Of a stretch of 64,000 bases of DNA, positions 10,168 to 62,739 are shown one piece after another; position 1 is the first letter of the stretch; every line of letters starts with the position of its first letter. Below the pieces are notes generated by a model, which did no database searches, was not told where the DNA came from, and saw only the letters and a list, made by a program, of their open reading frames with translations. Source of the stretch: a candidate division FCPU426 bacterium (GTDB lineage: Bacteria > Oederibacteriota > Muellerivitia > Muellerivitales > Muellerivitaceae); the NCBI GenBank assembly GCA_963719085.1, contig CAVRAL010000004.1:224001-288000 (forward strand). Reading direction: 5' to 3'. Made by a program: the position numbers and the translations under genes.

Positions 10168-10273
10168 TTTCACCGCCAAGACGCCAAGTTCGCCAAGGAC
10201 ACCCAAGGCGAAAATGTTTCAAATGAAAATCTTTGATTTTTTTCTTGGTGAACTTGGCGTCTTGGCGGTGAAA
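10168..10273. repeat. long intergenic palindrome (CGCCAAG-repeat family)
   Basis: 32-bp arms 10168-10199 and 10242-10273, 30/32 complementary. Confidence 0.85.
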
Positions 10274-17517: not shown

Positions 17518-17637
17518 AACCAAGACCCACTGCCCACGCAAAGACACTAAGACACAAAGGTAATCAAATCATTTTGTTAAGACTTTCCTCTGATTTTGCC
17601 CTTCTTGGCGTCTTTGCGTGGGCAGTGGGTGTTGGTT
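17518..17637. repeat. MITE-like 120-bp palindromic element related to the GxxExxY flanks
   Basis: 35-bp arms 17518-17552 and 17603-17637, 32/35 complementary, termini AACCAA...TTGGTT. Confidence 0.85.
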
Positions 17638-57852: not shown

Positions 57853-59694
57853 TTAAGAGAATTGTTTTTTTAGCTCGCTCATTTGCCGAGCGAGAAGCAG
57901 CGCTTCTTCCTGTTGCCCCGCCTTCTCCGCCTCACCCTGCTTTTGCTTTAAAGTGTCCATCTCCCGCTTGAAATAGCGTTTTTTAACCTCGCCCGCGAAC
58001 TCCAGGATCATGGCTTCCCGTATCTGCCGCTCCTTCAGGTTGACCTCGTCCTCGCTCTTGTTTTTCCACAGGGCGGCGTCCTGCTTGCGCTTTTCCGCCC
58101 GGGCCTCGATGCGTATAAAAGACGATTCCAACTCGGGAACCGCGTTAAGCTCCGCGGGCTTTAGGTCGCCCGAACTGAGCTTCTCAAACAGATCCCGGAA
58201 CTTCGCGTTCGCGAAATGCTGGGGCGACAGTTCATTGGCCGCCCAGGGCACAAATTCCCCCCGCTCTTCCGTGAGCAGGGCCAAAAAGTCGCTTTCCACC
58301 TCGTCGCTTCCATCCGTCTTCTCTTTAGACGGAGCCGCCGGCTTATCCGGGTTCGGGGCCTGGGACCCTTCGGCCGTGAACCGGCGGGGGCCGCCCTTTT
58401 TACGGGCCGTATTCACCAGGGTCAGCAAGTCCCGGTTGTCCAGGGACAACTCGGACTCGATGGCCGCGCAAGCCGCCTGCACCGCCGCCTCATCCTCCAA
58501 TCCCGCCAGGACGGGGACAAATTCCTGGAGCGCGCGTATCAACTCTTCTTTTCGCGCTTCCGGCATCTTGGCTCTCAACGAAGACGCCCACCACCTGAAA
58601 AAGTCAGGGGCCTTCTCAATCAGCGCCGTCAGGTCTTCTTTTGGGTGCTTCTGTAAATACTCGTCCGGATCCTTGGCATCCGGAATGAGCAAAACCTTCA
58701 CTTGAAGGCCAGCCTGCATCAGGGGCTCGAAACCCCGCAAAACCGCCGCCTGCCCCGCCGCGTCCGCGTCGTAGGAAAAAACCACTTCTTTCGTGTAGCG
58801 TTTCAACAAGGGGCCGTGTTGGGTGGTTAAGGCCGTCCCCAAGGTCGCCACCGCGTTGTCAAAACCAAAAAGATGCAGGGCCAAAGCGTCGAAATAACCC
58901 TCAACGACTAGCACGAATCCCGCGCGGCGAATTCCTTCCCGGGCGGCGTTCAACAAATAAAGCGTCTCACCTTTTTTAAAGAGAAGGGTTTCTGGCGAAT
59001 TGAGGTACTTAGGACCGGGATCCTCACCCAAAGTCCTGCCGCCGAAGGCGATGATATTATCATAATTGTTAAAGACGGGAAAGATGAGGCGGTTCCGAAA
59101 TTTATCGTAATAAGTGTTTTTTTCCTCGTTATGAACCAGCAGTCCCGCCGCCAATAGTTCCTCTTGGGAGAACCCCTCTTTTTGAGCCGCGTTTTTTAAG
59201 AAATCCCAGCCCGGAGGGGCGAAACCAATCTTAAATTTTACGGCCATTTCCTTGGTAAAACCCCGGGCCTTGTAATAGTCCCGCGCGCTCTGGCCTTCGG
59301 CCGACAACAGTTTTTCGTGATAAAGCTTTCCGGCCAATTCATTCAAAGCGATCATGCGCTCGCGCTGGCGATCCCGGGCCAAATCCTGCGCGCTGTCCTG
59401 TTGGGTCGGCAAAGGGATTCCCGCTTTGCCCGCCAAATGCCGCAGGGCTTCGGGAAAGGGCATCTTTTCCATTTCCATGACGAAGGTGATGACATTGCCG
59501 CCCTTGCCGCAGCCGAAACAATGGAAGGTGTGCCGGGAGGGAGACACGATAAAGCTGGGCGACTTTTCGCTGTGGAAGGGGCAGAGGCCCTTGTAGCTGG
59601 ACCCGGCTTTTTTAAGGGACACGTATTCGCTTACTACGGACACAATGTCCGAGGAATCGCGCACACGCTGAATGATGTCGTCCGAATATTTCAT
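57853..59694 (-). CDS. dnaG: DNA primase
   Basis: [11 protein letters not shown]...[30 protein letters not shown]. Confidence 0.97.
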
Positions 59695-59716
59695 GAAACC
59701 CTTTTAGAAAAAACTG

Positions 59717-60343
59717 AACCAATACAAACAGCTCACGCAAAGACGCTAAGACGCCAAGGAAGCCTCAACCTCTTAGATAAATCGACAACAATCACCCATA
59801 AAAACTAGGCCTTCTTAGTAAAAACAATTCGTTGAATACCGTCTTTGATAACCGGAACATTGAAATTGATCAAAAGACCCAATTCGTGACTGGATAATTT
59901 CAAATATGTCCGCAATTGAGCCTGATGAACTTTTGTAATGATTTCCACGGCTTTCAACTCAACCACCACCCTATCCTCAACCAACAAATCCAGTCTCAAT
60001 CCTCCGTCCAGGGTCAGTCCTTCAAAGCTGATCGGCAATAATACCTGTTTATCCACTTTAAGACCGCGAAGCTTCAATTCGTGAATAAGGAACGATTCAT
60101 AAACACTCTCCAATAAGCCCGGTCCCAAGGTTGAGTGAAGTTTGAAGGCCGCGTCCACTACTTCGGAAGCAATCCGATTCGTTTCTGGATCTATTTCCAG
60201 TCTTGGATTTTTGTTTTCCTCACTCATGTCTACCTTCGCAGCTTTTCGTTAGATTTTGGCAGTTTTCGCTAAATCCTTCAAACAACAAAGCTTTTGCCTA
60301 CCTTGGCGGCTTAGCGTCTTTGCGTTGGCTTTTTGTGTTGGTT
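59717..60343. mobile_element. GxxExxY cassette bounded by 43-bp imperfect inverted repeats
   Basis: Arms 59717-59759 and 60301-60343, 38/43 complementary; mobility is inferred only. Confidence 0.6.
59805..60227 (-). CDS. GxxExxY family protein (PD-(D/E)XK fold)
   Basis: LGPGLLESVYE, RLDLLVE, VVELKAV, AQLRTYLK, GLLINF. Confidence 0.93.
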   Translation of the reverse strand: MSEENKNPRLEIDPETNRIASEVVDAAFKLHSTLGPGLLESVYESFLIHELKLRGLKVDKQVLLPISFEGLTLDGGLRLDLLVEDRVVVELKAVEIITKVHQAQLRTYLKLSSHELGLLINFNVPVIKDGIQRIVFTKKA

Positions 60344-60348
60344 GTCCT

Positions 60349-62739
60349 TTACTTCTTAAACTTAATCACCGTCACCCCGGCGCCGCCCTGGGACGGTTCG
60401 GCCATGGAAAACTCCACGTTCGGATGTTGGACGGGCAGGTGTTTGTGAATGGCTTCCTTCAAGGCGCCCGTCCCTTTCCCATGGATGATACGCACAAAAG
60501 GCAAGTCCACCAAGAGCGCGTCATCGATGAATTTATCAAGTATCAGCAAAGCCTGGTCCACCATTTTGCCCCGCAGATCCAGCTCCAACTGGCCCTTATT
60601 CTCACGGGCCGTTTGAAGCGCGTTCGGCTGGGATCGCACCGGTGGTTTTGCCGTCACAGGCCCCGCCAATCCCAAATCGGAATATTTGCAGGAAAGCTTC
60701 AGTCCCCCGTCCAAAAGGATGACCGCTTCTTGTTTCTCATCGTCCGCGTTCAGGACTTTGGCTTTGGAATTGCCGGGTTTAAAAAAGATCGCTTGGCCTT
60801 CTTTTAATTCCCGCACTTCCAGCAAACGCCTCTCGTTGATTTGGGGGATATTTTTAAGTTTGAGTCCCACTTCCCTTTGGGCTTGGCGCGCCTTGTCCCG
60901 GTTCAACTCGCCGGCAGGGGCCACGCCCTGGATGAGATGATCCATCTGGCGCCGGGTGTTTTTCACGATGCCTTCGGCCTCGATCTGGGCCTGCCGTTTG
61001 ACGCGCCGGGCCTCTTCCTTCATTTGGCGCCGGGCGGCTAAAAGTTCTTCCTCTATTTTCTTGGCCCGGTCCCGGGCCTTTTCAGCTTCCAGACGCGCTT
61101 CCTGCGCCTGTTGTTTCTCGGCCCCCAGTTTGGCCAGAAGCTCCGAAAGGTCGGCTTCGCCTTGGGGCAGGTGCGCCTTGGCTTTTTCCAAAACCACCGG
61201 ATCAAATCCCAATTGGGTGGCCAGGGTCAAGGCGTAAGATCTTCCCGGTACGCCCACCACCAGCTTAAAGGTGGGCTTGCCGGTGGCCTCGTCAAAAAGC
61301 ATGGCGGCGTTGGCCATTCCTTTTTCTTCCTGGGTTAAAAGTTTCAAAAGCGGTTGATGAGTATTGGCGAACACGAGCGATTGCCTCTCCCGGAAAGCCT
61401 CAAGACACGCGAGCCCCAAAGCGCCGCCCTCCCGAGGGTCGGTTCCCGAACCCAGTTCATCCAAAAGTAAAAGCGTTTCCCCATCGGCCCGGTCCAGCAT
61501 GCGTTTCAAGGCCGTCAGCTTGGCCGCGTAAGTGCTGAGGTGATCCTCAAGATTTTGGGCGTCGGTGAGGTCAGTGTCAAAATGGGACAACCAGGGAAAG
61601 GAGCTGTTGCTGGAGGCTAAAACCGGAAGCCCGGTCTGAGCCATCACGCAGGAAAGTCCCATGGTCTTCAGCGCCACGGTTTTTCCCCCGGCGTTGGGAC
61701 CGGATAAAAGAATGACCCGCACCTGGGTCTCAAATTCCAAATTCAGGGGGATAACCTTGTCCCTGTATTTTTCACCTGCTTCCAAAACCAGCAAAGGATG
61801 GCGGGCCTCGGTCAGCCGGAAGGCCGTTTCTTTTTGAGGCGCCAAAAATTGTCCGTCAAAGCGGGAGGCGAAAAGCGCCAAGGCCCCATGGGCATCAATC
61901 TCGGCGCAGGCCGCTAAGGTGATGGACAGTTCTTGTGCCACACCCTTCACCGCTTCCGTGCACTCCCGCAAGACCTTGCGGATTTCCTCGTCCTCTTGGA
62001 GCCGGGTTTCCCGGACCTGGTTGTTGCGCTCAACGATTTCCTGGGGCTCAATGAAAACCGTCGAGCCCGAGGCCGAAAGGCCGTGGATAAACCCGGGAAC
62101 CTGCGATTGATGGTCCCGCTTGACCGGCACGACCAGGCGGCCTTCCCGCTCGGTCACAATCTTTTCTTGAAGCGCGTCCGCGTGGTTCGCGGTCTGAAGA
62201 AACTGCCGGTAATAATCCTGGACTTCGGCTTGAAGGGATTTGAGCCGGTCCCGGACGCTTTTAAGCTGGGGGGAAGCGGAGTCAAAAACCCCGCCTTGGT
62301 CCGAGATTTTGCGGCCCAAAAACTCGCGCAAGGCCGGAAGCGGCTGTAAGCGCGAAAGCCAGTCAACGAAAGCCGAGGCTTGTTTTTCATCCATCGAAAG
62401 CGCCTTCCGCAGCTTCACCACCTGGGCCAGAAAACGGGCCAAGGCCGCCAGTTCCAAAGCCGAAAGCACTTTGCCCGAGACCCGGGAATCCTCAAAAGAA
62501 TCTTGAAATTCCTCCGCTCTCGGGATGGACGGGGCGGAATACCGGATCAGGTGTTTTTCGAGCTGTTCGGTTCGGGCTAAGCGGCCCCGTAAGGTCTTTT
62601 CATCCCCCAAGGGCCTCAATTGAAAAAGCACGTTCCGGCCGGCGGGAGTCTGGCAATCCTTCGCCAAGCTCTCGAGCAGTCTGGGAAATTCCACGGCTTT
62701 TAAAAAGTTCTCAAGGCTCACGTCGTTCATAAAATCCAT
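60349..62739 (-). CDS. mutS2: MutS2 with C-terminal Smr domain
   Basis: SASGSTVFIEP, GPNAGGKT, DELGSGTDP, LDLRG, IIHGKGTG. Confidence 0.93.
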   Translation of the reverse strand: MDFMNDVSLENFLKAVEFPRLLESLAKDCQTPAGRNVLFQLRPLGDEKTLRGRLARTEQLEKHLIRYSAPSIPRAEEFQDSFEDSRVSGKVLSALELAALARFLAQVVKLRKALSMDEKQASAFVDWLSRLQPLPALREFLGRKISDQGGVFDSASPQLKSVRDRLKSLQAEVQDYYRQFLQTANHADALQEKIVTEREGRLVVPVKRDHQSQVPGFIHGLSASGSTVFIEPQEIVERNNQVRETRLQEDEEIRKVLRECTEAVKGVAQELSITLAACAEIDAHGALALFASRFDGQFLAPQKETAFRLTEARHPLLVLEAGEKYRDKVIPLNLEFETQVRVILLSGPNAGGKTVALKTMGLSCVMAQTGLPVLASSNSSFPWLSHFDTDLTDAQNLEDHLSTYAAKLTALKRMLDRADGETLLLLDELGSGTDPREGGALGLACLEAFRERQSLVFANTHQPLLKLLTQEEKGMANAAMLFDEATGKPTFKLVVGVPGRSYALTLATQLGFDPVVLEKAKAHLPQGEADLSELLAKLGAEKQQAQEARLEAEKARDRAKKIEEELLAARRQMKEEARRVKRQAQIEAEGIVKNTRRQMDHLIQGVAPAGELNRDKARQAQREVGLKLKNIPQINERRLLEVRELKEGQAIFFKPGNSKAKVLNADDEKQEAVILLDGGLKLSCKYSDLGLAGPVTAKPPVRSQPNALQTARENKGQLELDLRGKMVDQALLILDKFIDDALLVDLPFVRIIHGKGTGALKEAIHKHLPVQHPNVEFSMAEPSQGGAGVTVIKFKK

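Follow-up and report, generated by a model that had tools for sequence, protein, structure and literature searches.

Insertion sequence (IS) elements with MITE derivatives carry a transposase gene within inverted arms and also occur as short, gene-less versions, and the intervening sequences of 23S rRNA can bear open reading frames (ORFs) that are looped out by paired arms. A third arrangement is that of the REPIN-RAYT, REPtron and TIRtron systems, in which a low-copy, long-resident gene lies inside inverted copies of an abundant repeat, as described in the accessible text of the reports (PMC5581495, PMC3733652, 10.1101/2024.07.17.603846). Homing endonucleases with a PD-(D/E)XK fold also exist, such as I-Ssp6803I (PMC3384342, accessible text). 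PF13366, the Pfam family matched by the GxxExxY protein considered here, is listed with the function "Unknown" and with multiple transfers across prokaryotes in the accessible part of one paper (PMC3424549), and a GxxExxY gene adjoining a reverse transcriptase is mentioned in passing in that of another (10.1101/2021.01.26.428298). Our literature search, which covered mostly the body text of open-access papers, found no account of a pairing between GxxExxY genes and repeats.

The DNA analyzed here, a stretch of 64,000 nt (the window), contains a GxxExxY gene enclosed by inverted repeats between mutS2 and dnaG. A sequence-only reading had proposed this unit as a candidate autonomous element. We describe the locus, its protein, the related repeats in the source genome (G000; 3.04 Mb, 99% complete) and GxxExxY loci elsewhere. 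New here are the history of the mutS2-dnaG junction over 27 genomes, the matching of genes and arms at the level of arm versions, and a tandem subfamily of the protein with a dead domain.

Organization of the Locus

The inverted arms around an A+T-richer gene, as described in the sequence-only reading, were confirmed (Table 1), and a repeat finder lengthened both arms to 55 nt at 82% match. The internal repeat of ACGCnAAG type noted earlier is present as three 8-nt units per arm, with the first base altered in one unit. The upstream arm starts 5 nt past the mutS2 stop codon, and the whole arm-gene-arm unit of 627 nt fills the junction from that stop to the dnaG start. All three genes share the minus strand. 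The G+C content of the GxxExxY gene is 0.42, compared to 0.57 and 0.56 for its neighbors.

Table 1. Features of the GxxExxY cassette, its boundaries and two gene-less arm pairs in the window.
Feature	Position	Strand	Description
Upstream arm (transcript direction)	60301..60343	-	A/C-rich leader and three 8-nt CGC-N-AAG units
GxxExxY gene, 140 aa, PD-(D/E)XK fold	59805..60227	-	From profile and model; predicted catalytic E40, D80, E90, K92 and Q104 all present
Downstream arm, inverted copy	59717..59759	+	Reverse-complement match to the upstream arm at 38 of 43 positions; stops 22 nt ahead of the dnaG start codon
mutS2, upstream host gene	60349..62739	-	TIGR01069; site boundary, outside the element
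dnaG, downstream host gene	57853..59694	-	TIGR01391; site boundary, outside the element
Gene-less inward-facing pair, cassette's own arm subfamily	17518..17637	.	52 nt between core matches
Gene-less inward-facing pair, sister arm subfamily	10174..10267	.	64 nt between core matches

No target duplication was found at the cassette, whose empty alleles are too diverged for comparison. No promoter-like site was found within positions 59650-60450, and an Rfam search returned one sub-threshold row and nothing at the gathering level. A single arm folds at -0.3 to -1.7 kcal/mol (z -0.09 to 1.29), as a tandem array with no hairpin of its own. The predicted fold of the cassette pairs its two arms around the gene (z -4.84, 20 shuffles). 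Four sets of DNA contigs from sequencing runs contained neither a joint across the cassette nor a piece spanning it.

The GxxExxY Protein

The 140-aa ORF matched TIGR04256 (GxxExxY; 137.6 bits against a cut-off of 35, E 2.2e-40) and PF13366 (PDDEXK_3; 133.4 bits against a cut-off of 22, E 6.2e-39). The Pfam search returned PF13366 only, plus a sub-threshold Cas4 row, and no transposase domain. Solved structures gave no sequence match to the protein, and an Atlas search without PF13366 yielded nothing usable. Folding from the single sequence reached a pLDDT of only 40.9; a model built from 36 aligned rows, out of the 80 loci plus the query, reached 90.7 and contained the PD-(D/E)XK core. E40, D80, E90 and Q104 are invariant in these 36 rows, and K92 is nearly so. 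Folds of Cas4 and of restriction enzymes headed the structural matches of the model. The best Foldseek row was Cas4 SSO0001 (E 2.6e-3, 22% identity, Z 7.7), BpuSI (Z 8.0) was also among the best rows, and Hjc had a Z of 6.6. Z values of 8 or less speak to the fold only, and may reflect just a common arrangement. By its modeled fold and its conserved acidic and lysine residues the protein fits the PD-(D/E)XK nucleases, and we predict that it is a nuclease.

Tandem double domains were present in 75 of the best 120 long homologs (P0001-P0075), the two domains being about 35% identical. (A first metagenome scan for tandem forms found none.) In 70 of the 75, E40, D80, E90 and K92 are kept in domain 1 and lost from domain 2; with Q104 included, the full set is retained by 71 first domains, and all five residues are missing from 60 second domains. 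Both domains retain the GxxExxY glycines, N121, F122 and R133. Since these five residues are kept in one domain and lost from the other, they are likely to be the catalytic ones; all five are present in 73 of 74 single-domain proteins. The dead active site suggests that the protein may work as a dimer that needs just one active site, i.e., as a nicking enzyme. The 75 tandem proteins belong mostly to one subfamily, and none of three tandem-domain loci (L245-L247) has inverted arms (arm-like units lie nearby), making this a clue to a nicking dimer rather than proof.

No transposase family was listed among the domains precomputed for the best 120 long homologs. About 20 RNase H-GxxExxY fusions of some 300 aa occur among P0076-P0109, as do single fusions with sigma70, QueC, glucokinase, dUTPase and others. 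Such fusions are likely to be read-through products after insertion at a gene end.

Dispersed Arms in the Source Genome

A two-unit core pattern found 186 arms in G000, compared to 2 in a 600-kb order-3 Markov control; the window alone has 8 matches, with 0.09 expected. Inward-facing pairs account for 146 of the 186 arms (73 pairs), and 68 of these pairs enclose only 34-126 nt. The remaining 40 arms are unpaired under the strict pattern. Neighboring arms face outward in three cases and never have the same orientation within 1 kb. A second arm family, with units ending in GAT, adds 35 more pairs. All four GxxExxY genes of G000, one of them with a stop, sit within arm pairs. An ORF of more than 100 codons is present in 5 of the 109 inward pairs shorter than 2 kb, and in 4 of these 5 it is GxxExxY. 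The 627-nt unit belongs to a family of inward-facing repeat pairs, as a member with a gene inside.

Both arms belong to the same subfamily in 61 of the 73 pairs, compared to 26.8 after shuffling. Outside the core, arms within one pair resemble each other no more than arms of different pairs, which ruled out a fold-back origin of the pairs. The ends of 16 pairs of the cassette's subfamily have no target duplication, extending what the sequence-only reading had reported for the locus itself. The spacers of the short pairs are nearly all unrelated, with 2 of 2278 comparisons scoring at least 30. When 69 of these spacers were compared with gene bodies, the mean score was 25.4 (23.9 for shuffled sequences) and the maximum 33 (34 for shuffled). 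Gene deletion was therefore rejected as a general source of short pairs, being undetectable in these spacers and seen in one case, in the relative G005.

Among 68 G000 elements there is one clear pair of near-identical whole copies, L234 and L235 (G000:C1:245516 and C1:690251). Their similarity spans the arms, the spacer and about 25-40 nt beyond, and a similar spacer occurs in the congener G001 (L223), where one arm family is nested in another's spacer. Near positions 1180050 and 363950 of G000:C4 (matches to L201 and L216), one stretch of about 75 nt interrupts an arm of two GAT-family pairs. A pair of the cassette's own subfamily (L231:1363-2038; G000:C4:1219863-1220538) surrounds an unrelated 154-aa ORF that has no Pfam match. 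Its look-alikes in the Atlas are unnamed clusters, one of which is mostly viral, judging from few records.

Arms occupy 207 of 2393 G000 gene junctions (about 9%, by crude gene calls). Among gaps of at least 100 nt, and with the same crude calls, arms were found in 165 of 829 co-directional, 34 of 103 convergent and 8 of 197 divergent junctions. In a cluster of cell-wall and division genes (G000:C1:213703-226654), most junctions hold arm pairs. Five families of mobile-element enzymes were searched for in G000: there was no match to Y1_Tnp/RAYT (PF01797), DDE_3, DDE_Tnp_1 or IS110, and one match to the rve integrase.

Arms at Other GxxExxY Loci

Eighty GxxExxY loci were sampled from species genomes that span more than 10 phyla and include one archaeon. 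With an inverted-repeat score of at least 28 as the criterion, 40 of the 72 scorable loci had arms, compared to 0 of 662 control positions. From metagenomes another 80 loci were sampled and 77 scored, of which 58 passed (controls, 0 of 180), as did 82 of 92 loci of relatives. No clear inverted repeat was present at 32 of the 72 and 19 of the 77 loci. Across loci, the arms are variants of CRC-N-RAG or CRC-N-RAT units at a spacing of 8-10 nt. A perfect 106-nt inverted repeat at L105 was set aside as a possible assembly artefact, since it runs to the contig end. At L085, L087, L089, L097, L100, L106 and L107, the outer end of the arm lies against, or shares bases with, the stop codon of the host gene upstream.

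Three pairs of related cassettes (L107/L146, L165/L166 and L158/L175) occupy different sites. Within each pair, DNA identity is 75-79% and similarity stops at the arms, so that only arms and gene are common, which implies that the gene does move, slowly. The gene matched 7 records in a set of 72,556 from plasmids and none in a set of 50,697 from phages. Broken copies are frequent among the loci of relatives.

All shared flank clusters except one are co-oriented with the GxxExxY gene; a test of gene orientation by ORF length (82 of 85, compared to 68 of 88 in the control) was uninformative. This orientation bears on the alternative that the arms act in RNA, by pairing in the operon transcript, looping out the insert and signaling its processing or stability, with the protein or RNase III cutting the stem. 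We regard this as improbable. It is favored by the predicted pairing of the cassette's arms, by the co-orientation of gene and operon and by the avoidance of divergent junctions (again by crude gene calls), and G-U pairs favor the transcribed strand by 64:35 in the family cassettes (p 0.005). However, this bias is absent from three other sets (80:74, 31:29 and 68:58), and none of the five mismatches of the mutS2-dnaG cassette is G-U on the mRNA. Furthermore, the likeness of arms beyond the core is no greater within pairs than between them, avoidance of promoter regions is equally expected from selection, and the spread of new arm versions is left unexplained. The loop-out in mRNA suggested by the sequence-only reading is physically possible, but a G-U bias toward the transcribed strand was present in only one of four sets.

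Covariation of Gene and Arm

A quick tree was calculated from 79 proteins and 128 columns, after dropping 13 of the 92 relatives' loci as broken or partial; in five, a stop was read as X. On this tree, arm type changes 15 times, compared to 41.5 after shuffling, a signal that is inflated by same-site orthologs, with some automatic arm labels wrong and kin not independent. The four G000 paralogs take four places on the tree, the others being 43-62% identical to the mutS2-dnaG cassette protein.

Arm versions were then counted by genome. The cassette's own version occurs 31 times in G000, 5 times in G001, once in G050 and not at all in the other 58 genomes. The sister version, carried by the same-site genes of relatives, occurs 85, 59 and 52 times in G010, G030 and G006, which have an intact sister gene, 27 times in G005 (a remnant), 11 times in G014 (a broken gene) and 0 times in G000; it also occurs 33 times in G026, where no gene was found. 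For the AAT family, each of the four genomes bearing that gene clade has 18-26 matches, and G024, G025 and G004, in which no such gene was found, have 20, 13 and 7. The GAG family fits worse: it is abundant in several genomes without a GAG-armed gene, and G021 has such a gene and only 3 GAG matches. G001, G028 and G042 have 23-76 AAG matches and no GxxExxY gene was found in them; G042, with 23, is 100% complete. Over 61 genomes, tabulating gene presence against at least 20 AAG matches gave 25, 8, 3 and 25, a result confounded with lineage. Repeat abundance and version thus track the gene, but with exceptions (G026, G024, G025, G004, G001, G028, G042 and G021).

A cross-phylum test used the genomes of 50 of the 80 species-genome loci, 26 of them with other arm types. 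Extra CAC-N-AAG matches had a median of 16.5 in 16 same-arm genomes, compared to 0 in 8 other-arm genomes (p 0.008). The reverse test was weaker (13 compared to 2, p 0.07).

We considered whether GxxExxY might be a passenger, with the pairs being moved by some other enzyme or by host repair alone. The G000 pair around the 154-aa gene, a G001 pair around about 440 nt of other DNA and the repeats in genomes without a found gene all fit such an account. Against it, four of the five gene-bearing pairs of G000 hold GxxExxY, the link between gene and arm spans many phyla, the predicted catalytic residues are retained, and four transposase families are unmatched in G000 (five families searched). We consider a passenger role very unlikely.

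The mutS2-dnaG Junction in Relatives

The junction could be read in 27 of 31 family genomes; G011 (contig edge), G015 and G021 (no dnaG match) and G026 (mutS2 not upstream) were left out. A GxxExxY gene is present in five of the 27, intact in G000, G006, G010 and G030 and broken in G014. In G005 the junction is a deletion remnant in which the first codons of the gene are fused to the far arm (mutS2 is off the contig). Gene-less pairs occupy five junctions; in G029 the pair belongs to the sister family of the cassette, and in the other four it comes from different arm families. Three junctions retain small hairpin residues. Empty sites do exist: 11 of the 27 junctions are short and armless (13-45 nt where measured), including that of the congener G001 at 16 nt. 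The remaining two fit no clear class.

Other arrangements were also seen at this junction. A gene-less pair of the same family directly follows the cassette in G030 (L180), a second arm family is nested within the sister-family pair in G029 (L238), and in G028 and G022 (L243, L244) there is a different kind of short, heptamer-like repeat.

The proteins of the four intact site genes group in a single clade (SH-aLRT 99), with pN of 0.11-0.21 and pS of 0.67-0.89, so that synonymous sites are saturated; these values point to purifying selection on the gene. Occupancy is scattered over the host DnaG tree (26 rows), with 5 changes, and 500 of 500 shuffles gave values as low. Given a single saturated clade with scattered occupancy, the cassette is either old at mutS2-dnaG with many losses, or re-entered long ago. 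"Autonomous", in the IS sense of the sequence-only reading, is therefore an overstatement for a gene that is old and under purifying selection: the paralogs are only 43-62% identical to the cassette protein, synonymous sites are saturated in the one clade that fills the site in five genomes, and plasmids and phages almost never carry the gene.

The same site could be explained by homing, in which the nuclease cuts empty or older junction alleles and gene conversion copies the cassette in, the short pairs being decayed cassettes. In its favor, the five genomes in which one clade occupies the junction are scattered over the host tree, alleles that are broken (G014), internally deleted (G005), without the gene or empty occur alongside one another, and endonucleases of this fold with a homing function are known. 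Saturation of pS between genera, however, means that no recent transfer is seen. Related cassettes are found at unrelated sites, protein clades follow arm type, and the short-pair spacers match gene bodies no better than shuffled sequences do; about 200 occupied junctions in one genome are also many for one-site homing. On balance, site-directed homing is unlikely.

Comparison of 21 G001 sites with G000 gave the same arm family at 7, a different family or subfamily at 6, no arms at 3 and no clear assignment at 5. The six differing sites indicate that sites are overwritten. At L225 (G001:C210:2466-2923), an arm pair surrounds about 440 nt of A+T-rich, non-GxxExxY DNA, at a site that in G000 is occupied by a short GAT pair.

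Long residence and purifying selection, together with near-absence from plasmids and phages as for RAYTs (PMC5581495, accessible text), might instead indicate a domesticated host function, with the arms as binding sites for nucleoid organization, repair loading or marking of self-DNA and their spread secondary. However, broken copies are frequent, the gene is gone from most genomes at mutS2-dnaG, and arm families differ at the 6 of 21 sites in two congeners. We give little credence to such a role.

Discussion

None of the three refuting outcomes named by the sequence-only reading was observed: arms flank GxxExxY genes in general, there are empty mutS2-dnaG sites, and the repeats track the gene, with exceptions. 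The REP/RAYT analogy offered by that reading is therefore the better one: the GxxExxY gene behaves like a master gene of RAYT type, by analogy, with an unrelated PD-(D/E)XK enzyme. We hold with moderate confidence that the predicted nuclease recognizes its own version of the arm and drives the spread of gene-less pairs, the gene itself moving rarely. The protein would act as a dimer that binds the tandem 8-9-nt units of its own arm, and would make its nicks in the arms or next to them, perhaps once these have paired as a hairpin or cruciform. An enzyme without strand-transfer chemistry of its own would rely on host repair, which would copy arm pairs into A+T-rich junctions just past stop codons. 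New pairs would often land on older ones and would leave no target duplication. Expression of the gene seems to depend on the transcript of the host operon.

Several observations run against this preferred reading. The unrelated spacers are not explained by simple copy-and-paste, repeats are abundant in genomes without a found cognate gene, one G000 pair encloses an unrelated gene, and G000 has one rve match.

The arm versions represent the predicted substrate of each GxxExxY protein clade, so that short oligonucleotides, with controls from other clades, allow a direct test of the family's function. If our preferred reading is correct, the REPIN-RAYT design arose a second time, independently, around a nuclease unable to join DNA itself, and the enzyme would account for the arms at about 9% of G000 gene junctions. 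Natural variation in specificity would also make such a 140-aa nuclease interesting as a tool. More tentatively, and with somewhat less confidence than doubt, we propose that GxxExxY proteins are the mobilizing enzymes of prokaryote-wide selfish repeats that use no DDE, HUH, tyrosine or serine recombinase and no reverse transcriptase. In this proposal, a 140-aa PD-(D/E)XK dimer, specific in each clade for tandem 8-10-nt units, nicks the arms, host repair writes pairs behind stop codons, and families compete and overwrite each other's sites.

As in IS/MITE systems, a gene lies between inverted arms, short versions lack the gene, and there is one derivative by internal deletion (G005). Unlike those systems, the cassette has no transposase domain, no target duplication and no near-identical gene copies, and its short versions have no common internal sequence. 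Like the homing endonucleases of I-Ssp6803I type (PMC3384342, accessible text), GxxExxY is a small stand-alone PD-(D/E)XK nuclease by prediction, in a patchy insert with broken and empty alleles, but the cassette lies outside any intron or intein and in dozens of unrelated junctions, and its arms covary with the protein. The core fold and the E...D...ExK...QxxxY layout are those of Cas4/RecB-like nucleases and Hjc, whereas GxxExxY has only 140 aa and has housekeeping genes alongside here. As in ORF-bearing intervening sequences of 23S rRNA, the ORF could be looped out by arms that pair in RNA; in contrast, the cassette sits between protein-coding genes, with a G-U bias in one of four sets and no Rfam match at the gathering level.

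The REPIN-RAYT systems differ in their enzyme, which is of the HUH/Y1 type (PF01797 had no match in G000), and in their repeat, a short palindrome with its own hairpin rather than a tandem array without one; the spacers of the present family are also almost all unique. As in the accessible accounts of those systems (PMC5581495, PMC3733652, 10.1101/2024.07.17.603846), a low-copy, long-resident gene lies inside inverted copies of an abundant repeat, many further copies of that repeat form doublets of about 100 bp with no gene, a genome may have several gene-repeat families, these are rare on plasmids, and the repeats are found chiefly in co-directional and convergent junctions.
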